IMG/VR virus record: IMGVR_UViG_2563366840_000001
Origin: a virus
Taxonomy: Duplodnaviria > Heunggongvirae > Uroviricota > Caudoviricetes
Strand: one strand, 5' to 3'
DNA length: 64,000 bases
Of the stretch, positions 3,134 through 32,321 are shown piece by piece. A program made the translations under genes and the position numbers. The notes beneath the pieces are model-generated. The model saw only the letters and a list, made by a program, of their open reading frames with translations, had not been told where the DNA came from and did not search any database. The first letter of the stretch is position 1, and each line of letters opens with the position of its first letter.

Positions 3134-3985
3134 ATGATAAATTATGTCTACGGCGAACAACTGTACCAGGAGTTCGTCAGCTTCAGGGATCTCTTTCTAA
3201 AAAAAGCTGTTGCACGCGCCCAACACGTTGATGCCGCCAGCAACGGTCGTCCTGTACGCCCGGTTGTCGTTCTACCGTTCAAAGAAACTGACAGCATTCA
3301 GGCTGAAATTGATAAATGGACTTTAATGGCGCGGGAACTGGAACAGTACCCAGACCTCAATATCCCAAAGACTATTTTATATCCAGTGCCTAACATCCTT
3401 CGCGGTGTGCGTAAGGTTACAACTTATCAGACAGAGGCTGTGAACAGCGTCAACATGACCGCTGGCCGCATTATTCATCTGATTGATAAGGACATTCGCA
3501 TCCAAAAAAGCGCGGGGATCAATGAGCACAGTGCGAAATACATAGAGAACCTGGAAGCAACAAAAGAGCTAATGAAGCAGTACCCGGAGGATGAAAAATT
3601 CCGTATGCGCGTACACGGCTTTAGCGAAACAATGCTGCGCGTCCATTACATTTCTAGTAGCCCTAACTACAATGATGGTAAATCAGTTAGTTACCATGTG
3701 CCGCTATGTGGTGTGTTTATCTGCGATGAAACTCTCCGTGATGGAATTATCATCAACGGTGAATTCGAGAAAGCAAAATTTAGCCTTTATGACTCCATAG
3801 AACCGATCATCTGCGACCGCTGGCCGCAAGCAAAAATATATCGCCTGGCAGATATTGAAAATGTAAAAAAACAAATTGCCATCACTCGCGAAGAGAAAAA
3901 GGTTAAGTCAGCCGCATCAGTTACGCGCAGTCGTAAAACCAAGAAGGGGCAGCCAGTAAACGACAACCCCGAAAGCGCGCAATAA
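3134..3985 (+). CDS. c1: C1 master repressor of lysogeny (283 aa)
   Basis: Translation MINYVYGEQLYQEFVSFRDLFLKKAVARAQHVDAAS... recognised as P1 C1. Confidence 0.95.
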   Translation: MINYVYGEQLYQEFVSFRDLFLKKAVARAQHVDAASNGRPVRPVVVLPFKETDSIQAEIDKWTLMARELEQYPDLNIPKTILYPVPNILRGVRKVTTYQTEAVNSVNMTAGRIIHLIDKDIRIQKSAGINEHSAKYIENLEATKELMKQYPEDEKFRMRVHGFSETMLRVHYISSSPNYNDGKSVSYHVPLCGVFICDETLRDGIIINGEFEKAKFSLYDSIEPIICDRWPQAKIYRLADIENVKKQIAITREEKKVKSAASVTRSRKTKKGQPVNDNPESAQ

Positions 3986-3989
3986 ATTA

Positions 3990-4016
3990 TGCCCGGCATC
4001 AACCGGGCATTCTTCC
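3990..4016. terminator. Hairpin TGCCCGG-CATCAA-CCGGGCA between convergent c1 and the antirepressor-like gene; possible bidirectional terminator
   Basis: Inverted repeat with T-rich flanks read from sequence. Confidence 0.4.
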
Positions 4017-4017
4017 A

Positions 4018-5130
4018 TTATTCAACCGCCACCGGTTTTAACAAGCCAGCATCGAGCAGTTTACGCGTCAACCACTGCTGGCCTTTACCCGTTAATTGAG
4101 GCGTCAACCGTATCTGGTAGCCATCTTCATCATCCAGCACCACTTCTTTCACCGTGAAATACCCCGCGTTGATGTACTGCTGGAACGGCACATTTTTACG
4201 TCCACCGGACGCTATCAGGATGCCGTTCTCCCGTAACCAGGCAAACAGCGCGTTTTGCTTAAGTCCAACAACCTTTGCAAAATTCCCAATCAGGATCCCT
4301 TTAGCTACTGATACCCGGTCGGCAAAATCGACCTTAGGAGCGGCGGCTACCAGCTGCTGATTTAGCTGGTGGGCTTTCTGTTCCAGAAGCTGCTTTTTTT
4401 CAGCCAGTTCGGCAGCCAGGCGTAGGGCTTCTGGTAATGTTTGGGGGATTGCAACCGGTTGCTGTTCTTTTTGCCGGAAGTAGCTGTCTTCCAGTTTTTC
4501 AAAGAATGCCCATGCTTCATTTGTGTCCACGATCTTAGACATGCGTGCCGCTCCGCGCTCGGCCCAGAGAATTACCTGACTTGTATATTTGCTAACCAAG
4601 TGACTAATAGTCACTAGCCTTTTAAATTCCTTTAATTTTGAACCAGTTAAGAGATAGTAATGCTTACCTTCTTCAAAGCGATCGGGGTTGCGAGACAAAT
4701 TTTTACGAATATTCGCTTCATCGGTCCCATACCCTTTAGCAAGAGTCTCAGTTGTCACTACACGCACTCCCAGCCATTCCAGAACGGGAATTTCATCAGA
4801 CTGATTCTGAACAACCACCAGCTCCGATTCCTGAACTGAAGGTGCATGAATTTTTTCTGATTTAACGTTAGTTGCTTTCATTCTGTGTGCCTCCTTGCGT
4901 GCTTCGGCTGCGACGGTTGCGTAATTCAGATGACCCTGTTCGAGCAGGTATTCGCGGATATCAGACAACAGAATGCGGTGAACAGCGTTCTTGTCCTTTC
5001 TCCGGTAAAGTTGTTTGGTGATCATGAAGTAGTTGGCTATAACGCCTGGTATATCCCTGGTACTGATACAGGCAGTGTGCTGTTCAATTGCCTCGATCAT
5101 CTCTTCACGGGTGACTAATGACGTTCTCAT
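4018..5130 (-). CDS. Antirepressor-like protein (Bro-N/ORF6N-like middle region plus KilA-C/ANT-like C-terminus), 370 aa
   Basis: Motifs ETLAKGYGTDEANIRKNLSRNPDRFEEGKHYYLL and VSVAKGILIGNFAKVVGLKQNALFAWLRENGIL resemble phage antirepressor domains; domain call is from memory. Confidence 0.55.
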   Translation of the reverse strand: MRTSLVTREEMIEAIEQHTACISTRDIPGVIANYFMITKQLYRRKDKNAVHRILLSDIREYLLEQGHLNYATVAAEARKEAHRMKATNVKSEKIHAPSVQESELVVVQNQSDEIPVLEWLGVRVVTTETLAKGYGTDEANIRKNLSRNPDRFEEGKHYYLLTGSKLKEFKRLVTISHLVSKYTSQVILWAERGAARMSKIVDTNEAWAFFEKLEDSYFRQKEQQPVAIPQTLPEALRLAAELAEKKQLLEQKAHQLNQQLVAAAPKVDFADRVSVAKGILIGNFAKVVGLKQNALFAWLRENGILIASGGRKNVPFQQYINAGYFTVKEVVLDDEDGYQIRLTPQLTGKGQQWLTRKLLDAGLLKPVAVE

Positions 5131-5348
5131 AGTCCCTCCTGAGCAGAAGCGTTAACAGGGAGGCACCAGTAACTGAGAGAATTGCGCGAATCAGTAGAAA
5201 AACGGGCGGAGAAAATACAGGGTGCATCAGGAAGCTGAGAGCGAGCCTCATCTTCTGTCGGTGCAATAACGAAGTGATAGTGACGTTTCTGGCAGGAGTA
5301 AAAGCGCCAGATAAATTCAGGATGAGTTGGGGTAGGGATAGTAGCCAT
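5127..5348 (-). CDS. Hypothetical 73-aa protein, translationally coupled (ATGA overlap) to the antirepressor-like gene
   Basis: Strong RBS AAAGGAGG 7 nt upstream of ATG on the minus strand; 4-nt overlap with downstream gene. Confidence 0.45.
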   Translation of the reverse strand: MATIPTPTHPEFIWRFYSCQKRHYHFVIAPTEDEARSQLPDAPCIFSARFSTDSRNSLSYWCLPVNASAQEGL

Positions 5349-5533
5349 AATGGCAGCCTCCTTTGACTAAGTTAAGGAGCTACCGCGTGAGGTTCCAATC
5401 TCAATGGCGGTAGCACTGACTGGGTTGGAACTACCGGCGTCAAAGGGAACCGGCCTGCCTTTCGGCAGCCCAGCCAGCACTACCATTGATCTCTGAGCTA
5501 AACGCTACGTATGGCCGTGCGATGGCATGACAC

Positions 5534-5555
5534 AAAAAAAGACGCTTTTGGCGTC
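5534..5555 (-). terminator. Rho-independent terminator on minus strand (GACGCC-AAAA-GGCGTC then T7), downstream of pacB
   Basis: Stem-loop plus T-run read directly. Confidence 0.55.
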
Positions 5556-5688
5556 TGTGTCGCCTTTGACATTATCCGGGGTTCCAATCCCGGCACCCGT
5601 TTTAATGAGGTGCCTGATAAGCATAAACCGAAAATGCCTCAAGGCGCAAGAGGTCAGGTTCAATGTAACATCGGTAGCTAAAAAACAC

Positions 5689-5705
5689 AATTTATTAGAG
5701 CAAAT
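5689..5705. promoter_or_regulatory. C1 operator-like site just past the pacB stop
   Basis: AATTTATTAGAGCAA matches 15 of 17 consensus positions. Confidence 0.5.
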
Positions 5706-5707
5706 GT

Positions 5708-7192
5708 TCATTCATTAAGCCATGCCAGAGCTTCATCAACCTGCGCTTCGTCTTCGACGCTAAGCACTTCATCCTGGGGAACATAATCCGCCAGCATAGC
5801 GAAACAATATGTATCCCAATGGTCTGGTGAGTGCAGGTTGAGTTTTTTCTTCATATCCTCCTTACTCATCACCTTCCATTGACCTGCGGAGTTAATCCCT
5901 ACAGGGATTTTCGACGCTTCCTCAATAGTTTCATTACCCTTATCCAGTCTCATACGACCAGATTTTACGGCCTCTGCGGCTTGAACGTTGGCATAAGCAC
6001 GTTTATCAAAGTACAGGCTCTTATCTTCACGGCTATGCATCTTTTTACCCCAGCGTATACGCTGTACGGTAATACCATAATACTCGTACATCAGATCCGC
6101 CGTTGCTTTACCCAGCCCATCACCGTCTATCGCTATGGTGATATTTGGGAATCGCTCAGGATTACATTCTGCGAAAATTTTGGCGGCAAGCTGCGTTTCT
6201 GTAACGTCTGTGTATTCCAGCATTCGATAGTTGATTACACGGCGTTTATTTCTCTGGCCGGACACCATCATGATATTGATAACGGACTTATCCCGTCCCG
6301 TACCACCAGCAACGTCCACACATGCAAGCCAGCCCCATCCTTTGGCAATCTTGACTTTCCGCCGCGTCGCACGTTCAACCTCATCACGTCCAAGAAGGAA
6401 GCCATCCTGTGATTTAGGGAATAGTCCGCGTACCTTAATCATGTACATAGGGTTATCACGCCCGCCGTACTCCGCCAGCTTCATTTTGATAAATGCTGGC
6501 GTTACCAGCGGTGATTCCTCACTGTTAAGCGTGATCGCCGTATAAACGCCATCAGGGTTACCAGGACGCTTGGCCAGTTTATGGTGAGTATCGTAGAAAT
6601 AGCCGCTTGGGCGTGTAGGCTGTGACAATAATAAGATGCGGTTATCCTGTCCGGTAAGAGCACCAGTGATGATACCGAAAGCTCTATCACTGACACCGGA
6701 GGCTTCATCGATAATATACAGAAGATGATCTGCGTGTTCACCGGCGAGAGCTTCTTCACTTCCCAGACGAAAGCCCTTCGGTACTACAGTCCATACACCT
6801 TTACCAGTAACCTCATAGAAAGCGGTTTCTGTCAGAACAAAATAATCAGCAAGCCATGGAAAACGGCTGGTGGCAGTAGCCCAGTTTATCTTGATGTACT
6901 TGAATATACCGGTCATTACCTGCTGAATTTTGTTCGCAACGATAATGGCGCGGGCACCGGGATACATGATTATGAACAACATGATCATGATAGAAGTCAT
7001 GTCTGATTTCCCGGTACCGTGACCAGACGAAACAGATGTCTTGCTACCCTGTTCCTGCACAGACTCAATAATCAGATCCTGCTGCCAGGTAGGTGTTTTG
7101 CCGAACAAAACATCAGCGGCAGCAATCCAGTCATAACGATATAGCGCCACCAGCTCGCGCCAACGTGGATCCGTTACGCAACTTCTGGCCAT
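5708..7192 (-). CDS. pacB: PacB, terminase large subunit (494 aa)
   Basis: Walker A GHGTGKS and YIIDEA motif; follows pacA with overlapping stop/start as in P1. Confidence 0.9.
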
Positions 7193-32211: not shown

Positions 32212-32321
32212 TCCACCCAGGCGTGCTGAATGTCAGATATATGATTAGACTTGAGATAAATGACAGGGGATAAGTGAGATAATTATGGGAAGTACTGGGT
32301 CAACATGGGAAGAGACTGGAT

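Follow-up and report, generated by a model that had tools for sequence, protein, structure and literature searches.

What kind of element is the leader that stands upstream of the antirepressor genes at positions 5349-5707 of the window (the whole stretch of 64,000 nt analysed here, IMG/VR virus record IMGVR_UViG_2563366840_000001)? A preliminary description of this DNA, made from the sequence itself, had seen in it a structured non-coding leader with a C1 operator and a terminator, compatible with an attenuator or riboregulator of the antirepressor genes or with the remnant of an integration target. It had also suggested RNA structure prediction, an Rfam covariance search and the conservation of the hairpins in related phages as ways of checking this reading.

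The analysis presented here indicates, with high confidence, that the leader belongs to a complete P1 immI-type antisense-RNA immunity cassette, a second copy that a P1-like phage-plasmid carries between its pacB and c1 genes. The immI-type switch of phage P1, in which a small antisense RNA (C4), together with a decoy copy of its targets, keeps an antirepressor operon repressed, is of a well-known kind. What is described here is an additional cassette whose recognition code is its own, which departs in nothing from known mechanisms and is recognisable with curated models.

Genomic context of the cassette

The window corresponds to a P1-like (Punavirus) phage-plasmid, RCS47 and JL22 being its closest relatives (96–97% identity). 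Its P1 backbone ends at ~32.2 kb, and the region between 40 and 64 kb is a Mu-like prophage. When the window is mapped on P1, the cassette (3985–5709) takes the place of the 27 bp that separate pacB and c1 in P1. On the minus strand, the order of elements is pacB, the C1 operator, two weak promoters, the a1/b1 element with its terminator, C4, a2/b2, icd, and ant, and c1 converges on ant at the downstream end of this order. The genes and open reading frames around the leader are the following:

7192..5708, minus strand: pacB
5711..5505, minus strand: 68-codon ORF coupled to the pacB stop codon
5367..5486, minus strand: 39-codon ORF on the C4 gene, 'ash family protein' in RefSeq (Pfam Phage_ASH, 32 bits)
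5127..5348, minus strand: icd-like gene, 73 aa (NCBIfam phage_ICD_like, 49.8 bits)
4018..5130, minus strand: antirepressor gene ant, 370 aa (Pfam ANT/KilAC, 109.6 bits; ORF6N, 61.6 bits)
3134..3985, plus strand: c1 repressor gene (283 aa), with a c1 annotation in RCS47 and RefSeq plasmids

Both icd and ant are intact in the window, and the stop codon of the former overlaps the start codon of the latter (ATGA, 5130..5127). The Icd-like protein shares 81% identity over 63 aa with P7 Icd, and Ant is 56% identical to P7 Ant1, with conserved ends and a replaced middle. The c1 gene shows 98% nucleotide identity to P1 93232-94800, and its product is presumed to be both the target of Ant and the protein that binds the operator.

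The cassette does not lie at the canonical genome position of immI (sim, then immI, then kilA-repL), and no canonical immI was found in the window. RCS47, JL22, 673R5, and D6 carry the cassette together with a separate canonical P7/P1-type immI elsewhere. Taking into account its location between pacB and c1, and the fact that related phages keep a canonical immI, it has to be considered an additional cassette of immI type, distinct from the immI locus proper. D6-like plasmids have also been described as containing a second c4/icd region (PMC6799933), and a passage on RCS47 can also be cited on the question of a second cassette (PMC6906374). Of 5,426 complete E. coli genomes, 472 (~9%) contain the leader, mostly on plasmids.

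Structured RNA elements of the leader

The minimum free energy (MFE) of the 321-nt leader is -128.7 kcal/mol, against -101.5 +/- 5.1 kcal/mol for shuffled sequences (z = -5.4), and an Rfam scan of the whole window returned two families above their gathering scores in this region, isrK and C4. Thus, both the structure prediction and the covariance search that had been suggested gave positive results. All coordinates of the RNA cassette elements refer to the minus strand.

The isrK family (RF01394) matches 5613..5535 with 62.6 bits, over model positions 1-77 and against a gathering score of 50. This match is overlapped by that of family c4-a1b1 (RF03163, described as "a1, b1 targets of C4"), which reaches 23.1 bits and stays below its gathering score of 46.7, a threshold that is passed by P1/P7-type leaders, unlike the window leader. 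The leader of P1 is matched by the same three Rfam families, and the isrK element is the same entity as a1/b1 of P1 and seqA of P4. The upstream part of the leader comprises these features:

5534..5613, minus strand: IsrK/a1b1/seqA-type element, from Rfam isrK (RF01394) and covariation
5613..5593, minus strand: hairpin 1 of the upstream element, with compensatory changes at 5 of its 6 pairs
5593..5576, minus strand: hairpin 2 of the upstream element (CCGGGATTGGAACCCCGG, "T-arm-like"), with a1 in its loop and an invariant stem
5587..5581, minus strand: a1 (UUGGAAC), in the loop of hairpin 2, co-varying with C4
5571..5563, minus strand: b1 (UGUCAAAGG), just before the terminator, co-varying with C4
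5556..5540 (stem) with U-run to 5534, minus strand: intrinsic terminator, found by a terminator scan
5529..5561, minus strand: outer helix (GACAC 5561..5557 / GUGUC 5533..5529), enclosing the terminator and its U-run

The terminator is present in all the 24 loci compared below, with stems that differ in sequence. As a separate observation, the outer helix, which falls outside the Rfam isrK model, can be drawn with 4-8 bp in 24 of 24 loci and shows several compensatory variants, its non-cognate control being weak (6.5 vs 5.5). Tentatively, this helix would be able to form only in read-through transcripts.

Downstream of the terminator, the C4 family (RF01695) matches 5490..5403 over its full length (model positions 1-87), with 77.1 bits against a gathering score of 45 and an E-value of 3e-15. 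In P1 and P7, the C4 precursor is a substrate of RNase P, which trims it at the 5' end. The C4 gene and its target sites are arranged as follows:

5403..5490, minus strand: C4 antisense RNA gene (Rfam C4, RF01695)
~5484..5406, minus strand: predicted mature C4 (~79 nt), its ends placed by alignment to the annotated 77-nt c4 of P1
5484..5469 / 5424..5409, minus strand: C4 closing stem, followed by GCCA
5468..5455, minus strand: C4 hairpin 1
5454..5433, minus strand: C4 hairpin 2
5446..5439, minus strand: b' (CCUUUGAC), in the loop of C4 hairpin 2
5431..5425, minus strand: a' (GUUCCAA), in the single-stranded stretch after hairpin 2
5357..5398, minus strand: C4 target region in the icd-ant mRNA, with a2 and b2
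5398..5392, minus strand: a2 (UUGGAAC), just after C4, forming 7 bp with a'
5367..5360, minus strand: b2 (GUCAAAGG), overlapping the Shine-Dalgarno sequence AAGGAGG (5363..5357) and forming 8 bp with b'

The MFE structure of the predicted mature C4 (-46.7 kcal/mol) reproduces the fold of the family, a long closing stem around two hairpins, and 13 of the 22 consensus pairs of the C4 stems show compensatory changes among 18 sequences. The window contains exactly three occurrences of the pair TTGGAAC..GTCAAAGG, where chance would give 0, namely a1b1, a2b2, and, as the reverse complement, C4. The energies of single loop-target duplexes of 7-9 bp were marginally better than those of shuffles (p ~0.02-0.13), and are a weakly discriminating measure.

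Operator and promoters

Upstream of the isrK element lie an operator-like site and two putative promoters:

5688..5704, minus strand: C1 operator-like site, equivalent to P1 Op51/Oc4 (TTTGCTCTAATAAATTG, with 2 mismatches to ATTGCTCTAATAAATTT)
5662..5690, minus strand: putative P51a-like promoter, read by eye (-35 TTGTGT 5690..5685, 17-nt spacer, -10 TACATT 5667..5662)
5620..5649, minus strand: putative promoter equivalent to P51b and to P4 P_LE (-35 TTGCGC 5649..5644, 18-nt spacer, -10 TATGCT 5625..5620)

The operator-like site starts 4 nt past the pacB stop codon, and it is one of nine such sites observed in the window, where 0.22 would be expected. Its distance to the start of the RNA element is conserved: the operator lies 86-93 nt upstream in every P1-type locus, be it canonical or second module, and is found at the conserved distance in 61 of 61 IMG/VR cassettes of the window type. 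The site of the window is at -91, compared with -90 to -93 in P1/P7-type immI, and is predicted to bind C1. In a comparison of the upstream regions of the loci, the operator was absent from the lambdoid, P4 and D6 copies.

The two promoters have been proposed from positional conservation and the P1 annotation only; a consensus promoter scan returned nothing at its threshold in this region, both being weak matches (7/12). The -35 box of the P51a-like promoter overlaps the operator by 3 nt, as it occurs in P1 with the annotated P2c4 (P51a) and Op51. For the P51b-like promoter, the predicted start is at ~5613. A -35/-10 pair is present at this position in 24 of the 24 loci, with +1 coinciding with position 1 of the Rfam isrK model; this position is occupied in P1 by the annotated P1c4 (P51b) and matches the place of P_LE in P4. 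Since no promoter is recognisable in the interval between the terminator and C4, C4 must derive from read-through of the terminator. In P1, likewise, both annotated promoters are located upstream of a1/b1.

All the landmarks given in the preliminary description were recovered in this way. The C1-operator match is real (5704..5688, 2 mismatches), although it lies one base off the place first assigned to it, and so is the terminator, whose stem (5556..5540) is followed by a run of seven T to 5534. The stable hairpins that it had listed are present, including CTGCC-GAAA-GGCAG with its GNRA loop (5468..5455), and the strong RBS that it had placed at the end of the leader corresponds to AAGGAGG, 8 nt before the ATG at 5348. 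The T-arm-like hairpin also exists, but it is located upstream of the terminator (5593..5576) and not within the ~180 nt that follow it. Among the loci collected from related phages, the stems of C4 and of hairpin 1 of the upstream element are kept with compensatory changes.

Co-variation of the recognition sequences

A set of 24 loci was collected in which an isrK/a1b1 element is followed by C4, an arrangement found in 24 of 24. This set includes the window, five IMG/VR variants of the same cassette and the second module of D6; phiP27, several Stx phages, Ss-VASD, one Salmonella phage, one Klebsiella phage, and P4; and P1, P7, and five P1-type variants. The leaders were aligned by subfamily and the sequences extracted with the help of anchors, a global MAFFT alignment of window-type and P1-type leaders being out of register in the structured parts. 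In the same way, the C4 loops were anchored on the conserved hairpin arms, as MFE-based parsing misplaced hairpin 2 in about half of the sequences.

In every locus, b' and a' are complementary to four sites (a1, b1, a2, and b2), in spite of the variety of the recognition sequences (15 distinct b and 11 distinct a). Regarding the downstream targets (a'-a2/b'-b2), all of the 240 cells from 16 loci are paired and 13 of 15 pairs have changed on both sides, with a covariation score of 0.78 (0.16 when shuffled); none of 500 shuffles was as good, and the slid controls were 25-45% paired. Regarding the upstream element (a1-a'/b1-b'), 99.5% of the cells from 13 loci are paired and again 13 of 15 pairs have changed on both sides, the covariation score being 0.82 (0.18 when shuffled), with 0/500 shuffles as good and slid controls paired at 34-49%. 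Furthermore, a and b each exist as two types among near-identical cassettes; the four possible combinations all occur, and in each of them the three copies match one another. The fact that all three copies of each recognition sequence change together requires selection on the pairing.

Comparison with known systems

The annotated order of P1 immI is Oc4/Op51, P2c4 (P51a), P1c4 (P51b), a1, b1, c4, a2, b2, icd, and ant. The cassette of the window has the same order of elements, with nearly the same spacing, and, taking into account that the same Rfam families match both leaders, it is identified as an immI-type module. As in P1/P7 immI, the C1 operator is placed ~90 nt upstream of the RNA start, the two recognition sequences of a C4-family RNA each have one matching site upstream and another downstream, the icd RBS is covered by b2, and icd and ant overlap by 4 nt and encode proteins similar to those of P7 (81% for Icd and 56% for Ant). 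Unlike these loci, which are found between sim and kilA, the cassette of the window is located between pacB and c1, its recognition sequences differ, the centre of its Ant is replaced by an ORF6N domain, and the spacer from terminator to C4 has 43 nt instead of ~25. The leader itself is closer to the D6 (88%) and lambdoid (~70% identity) versions than to that of P1.

Gifsy-1 (isrK, orf45/STnc1160, anrP) shares with the window an isrK member having two hairpins and a terminator, with a C4-like RNA and a gene of antirepressor type downstream. In this prophage, compensatory mutagenesis has established that G28 and G31 of IsrK pair with C162 and C159 downstream (PMC4825925). These pairs map onto a1–a', the numbering used here being 3 nt off the published one, and thus correspond to the a1-a' pairing of the window. 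The window differs from Gifsy-1 in having a separate icd between the RNA and ant, as well as a C1 operator, and no AntQ-type antiterminator is known downstream in its circuit.

In P4 (P_LE, seqA, the CI RNA containing seqB, and seqC), the isrK element matches the position of seqA, and C4 matches CI; the promoter position, the kind of terminator, and the triplicated recognition sequences are also alike. However, P4 controls replication genes, its reported effect is premature termination of transcription, its spacer to CI reaches 106 nt, and it has no protein-repressor operator. In the literature, it is stated that sequences related to CI and seqA of P4 are picked up by the C4 and isrK profiles of Rfam (PMC10111431), and SeqA has been called a structural homolog of IsrK, the processed downstream RNA being likened to CI (PMC4825925).

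Alternative explanations

It could be argued that the leader is protein-coding, its RNA structures being secondary, through either the 39-aa 'ash' ORF (5486..5367) or the 68-codon ORF (5711..5505). The former has a Pfam Phage_ASH match of 32 bits and a RefSeq CDS, and the three ORFs of the window lie in one reading frame and are fused into one open frame in L004-type relatives. Moreover, orf45 of Gifsy-1, to which the 39-aa ORF corresponds, has been reported to be translated and needed for the translation of anrP (PMC4825925), and its first AUG maps to the 5'-terminal AUG of the C4-like RNA. In P4, termination is prevented by translation of the eta gene, which contains the RNA sites (PMC10111431). 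However, the ORF located on C4 has 14 codons in P1, 31 in P7, 28 in the Klebsiella phage, and 39 in the window, and is open in many lambdoid loci; an in-frame stop interrupts it in 12 of the 24 loci. Several close relatives lack the start of the 68-codon ORF, the substitutions observed are compensatory and preserve pairing, and the RNase P cut predicted from the alignment with mature P1 C4 falls inside the AUG that corresponds to the first one of orf45. Conservation of orf45 has itself been described at the nucleotide and not at the amino-acid level (relayed in PMC12197685). A coding function as the main role of the leader is therefore improbable on these data; it is possible that a leader ORF is kept as an upstream ORF of unprocessed transcripts, which would not be its main function, and the 39-codon 'ash family protein' ORF is probably an annotation artefact, at most such an upstream ORF. 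Somewhat less probable again is that a decaying, non-functional duplicate of immI is being observed, with hairpins that persist by descent alone. Such a fate would suit a second copy that sits beside a canonical P7-type immI in RCS47, JL22, 673R5, and D6, and in the RefSeq plasmid NZ_CP019262 the ant of the cassette contains an internal stop and bears a pseudogene flag. Because this occurs in at least one RefSeq plasmid, some copies of the cassette may be decaying. Against decay as a general explanation stand the integrity of icd and ant in the window, the four matched combinations of a and b among near-identical cassettes, in which all three copies change together, and the presence of the leader in 472/5,426 complete E. 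coli genomes.

The preliminary proposal of an attenuator or riboregulator was right in spirit as regards the riboregulation of the antirepressor genes, but the module is not a generic attenuator, being composed of C4 and an IsrK/seqA-type element. A purely cis-acting attenuator, in which alternative leader folds or a leader peptide would govern the terminator without any trans-acting RNA, is very unlikely. There is a real intrinsic terminator between the promoters and the genes, and an ORF can be drawn across it; nevertheless, neither the MFE nor the consensus structure, both static folds, contains a competing antiterminator fold, the cis-regulatory families of Rfam gave no match in the region even at E <= 1, the triplicated recognition sequences co-vary with a separately folded C4-family RNA, and the homologous RNAs C4 of P1 and CI of P4 act in trans according to the cited literature. 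As for the remnant of an integration target, the other possibility first envisaged, or of a tRNA gene, it can practically be discarded. Its appeal came from an acceptor-like long stem followed by GCCA and from a hairpin superficially similar to a T-arm. ARAGORN, however, found 0 tRNA or tmRNA genes in the window, the supposed T-arm is the a1 target hairpin, with a loop that co-varies with C4, and the host element is a plasmid-type P1-like phage in which the cassette stands exactly in the place of the pacB-c1 spacer; C4 itself, with its long acceptor-like stem followed by GCCA, accounts for the tRNA-like features.

Proposed mechanism of the immI-type cassette

For the immI-type cassette, the steps proposed for RNA processing, translational repression, Rho polarity, and the role of a1/b1 are drawn by analogy from its homologs. 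Thus, transcription would start at ~5613 from a promoter of a weak, constitutive type and, when C1 is lacking, an additional start would be provided by the upstream promoter, whose -35 box overlaps the C1 operator. The first ~80 nt would fold into two hairpins and the intrinsic terminator, with a1/b1 as copies of the two targets of C4. Transcripts ending at this terminator would give rise to a short IsrK/seqA-like RNA. Those reading through it would contain the C4 precursor, which would then be shortened (in P1/P7, RNase P acts on its 5' end), releasing an RNA of ~79 nt with a long closing stem and with a' and b' exposed.

It is proposed that C4 would then pair with a2 and b2 of the read-through mRNA, leaving icd untranslated because b2 covers the icd RBS. 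As ant, through its ATGA overlap, would depend on the translation of icd, no antirepressor would be made, and C1 would stay active. In P1, the untranslated icd-ant RNA is also terminated by Rho. The translational part of this scheme agrees with the block that C4 exerts at the RBS of the ant mRNA in P1 (summarised in PMC12197685 and PMC8198154).

Two roles can be considered for a1/b1. In one of them, C4 would pair with the nascent leader and favour termination, following the model of CI and seqA in P4. There, the pairing of CI with seqA leads to early termination of transcription. In the other, the short RNA would titrate C4, or compete with it, turning on the translation of icd-ant, as in the IsrK model of Gifsy-1. 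In that prophage, the short terminated IsrK acts in trans and turns on the translation of the read-through mRNA, and it is only for Gifsy-1 that a short Hfq-bound RNA acting in trans on the read-through mRNA is known (PMC4825925). The two literature models for the upstream element, termination and activation of translation, point in opposite directions.

Specificity and significance of the second cassette

The recognition code of the window (a = UUGGAAC, b = GUCAAAGG) is different from those of P1 (UUGACAG/GUUAGUG) and P7 (UUAGCAG/GAUUGUG), and no cross-complementarity was found between the C4 code of the window and the target sites of P1 and P7. In the second cassette of RCS47, a is UUGAGAC and b is the same as in the window. 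Judging by complementarity alone, the two modules of an RCS47-type phage should not cross-talk.

A wider reading, which is offered only as a conjecture and seems to us rather doubtful as a whole, is that RCS47-type phage-plasmids could run two orthogonal C4/antirepressor switches on one C1, the operator being at the same spacing in both, and that the second code would be undergoing a combinatorial reshuffling. According to this conjecture, the extra cassette might widen or retarget heteroimmunity, and the IsrK-like RNA might be a terminated decoy that sets the C4 threshold across the C4 family, P1 included.

In current annotation, RefSeq labels the C4 gene of the cassette as an "ash family protein" CDS, and the descriptions of RCS47 and pTZ20_1P give hypothetical ORFs plus ant only. 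With the C4 gene mislabelled and the RNAs undescribed, the RNA logic of the cassette is invisible. Its recognition ties three literatures (a1/b1 of P1, seqA of P4, and IsrK of Salmonella) to one co-varying element, and provides a comparative framework for distinguishing a decoy role of the upstream element from the promotion of termination. The coexistence and mutual induction of P1-like phage-plasmids, many of which carry resistance genes, could be altered by a second antirepressor that is wired to C1 and under orthogonal antisense control.

The isrK and c4-a1b1 families and a tentative helix around the leader terminator

The Rfam families isrK (RF01394) and c4-a1b1 (RF03163) match the same element in all loci (window 5403-5626, L002, L003 and others), and both families thus describe a single element. 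The leaders of the window type and of lambdoid phages passed isrK and failed c4-a1b1, and those of the P1 type passed c4-a1b1 and failed isrK. RF03163 is placed in clan CL00128 and RF01394 in no clan.

The leader terminator and its U-run are bracketed by a further pairing, which is not included in the Rfam isrK model:

5557-5561 / 5529-5533, minus strand: outer helix GACAC/GUGUC

This helix could form only in transcripts that read through the leader terminator. It is present, with 4-8 bp, in all of the 24 isrK/a1b1 and C4 loci collected, with compensatory variants such as CGATAC/GTATCG and TGCGGACA/TGTCCGTA, and the signal relative to a control with mismatched partners is weak (6.5 vs 5.5).

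Reading frames across the leader and the C4 gene

Two open reading frames precede icd in the cassette:

5505-5711, minus strand: 68-codon ORF, whose start codon overlaps the stop codon of pacB (ATGA)
5367-5486, minus strand: 39-aa 'ash family protein' CDS (RefSeq annotation; Pfam Phage_ASH, 32 bits)

The 68-codon ORF spans the operator, a1/b1 and the terminator, and shares one reading frame with the 39-codon ORF (5367-5486) and icd (5127-5348), two stop codons lying between them. In relatives of the type represented by locus L004 the same frame stays open between the ends of pacB and icd, a situation reminiscent of the eta gene of P4, whose translation prevents termination (PMC10111431). In other close relatives the start of the 68-codon ORF is missing.

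The ash CDS coincides exactly with the C4 RNA gene, its start being the AUGG at the 5' end of C4, and its counterparts are 'orf45' of Gifsy-1 and the old 'cI' ORF of P4. Taking into account that ORFs of this type show no conservation of length (14 aa in P1, 31 in P7 and 39 in the window, with an open frame in many lambdoid loci), the ash protein family may for the most part represent the translation of an RNA gene.

Multiple cassettes and possibly inactive copies

Two complete isrK-C4 modules (1005-1193 and 1661-1849) are found in tandem, 656 nt apart, in the lambdoid Enterobacteria phage PPyecE_EH1910 (L090), and they differ from each other in their a and b recognition sequences. Several viral contigs of IMG/VR (L010/L076/L082, L070/L077 and L015/L072) carry 2-3 icd-like genes each, every one preceded by its own C4 module. 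More than one immI-type cassette per element appears to be common. In NZ_CP019262.1 (L096, 2391-3503), whose cassette is near-identical to that of the window (leader identity 99%), an internal stop interrupts ant, which RefSeq marks as a pseudogene; thus, the second module may be inactive in some copies.

The P1 backbone and the C1 regulon

Homology to P1 stops a short distance upstream of ban, at window position 32241. Klebsiella phage KP12 and Escherichia phage Phi06_2974 B, both Mu-like/BcepMu-like transposable phages, match the region 40000-64000 with 97% identity, which suggests that a Mu-like prophage is inserted in the P1-like plasmid at about 32,300-64,000, the direct comparison covering 40000-64000. 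An insertion of ~1.3 kb (about 20082-21384) splits the backbone between P1 positions 81831 and 81840. The inserted segment probably represents an IS629-like member of the IS3 family; it contains an ALIL frameshift pseudoknot (20935-21051), whose Rfam score, 120.2 bits, equals that of the IS629 copy annotated in L092.

Sites resembling the C1 operator were found in the window:

2476, 2559, 3023, 5688, 8994, 17603, 19695, 19744 and 24681: nine C1-operator-like sites

These nine sites, against 0.22 expected, appear to match, through the window-to-P1 map, known locations of P1 operators (upstream of c1/coi, pmgT, pmgR, etc.), and the C1 regulon therefore appears to be intact.
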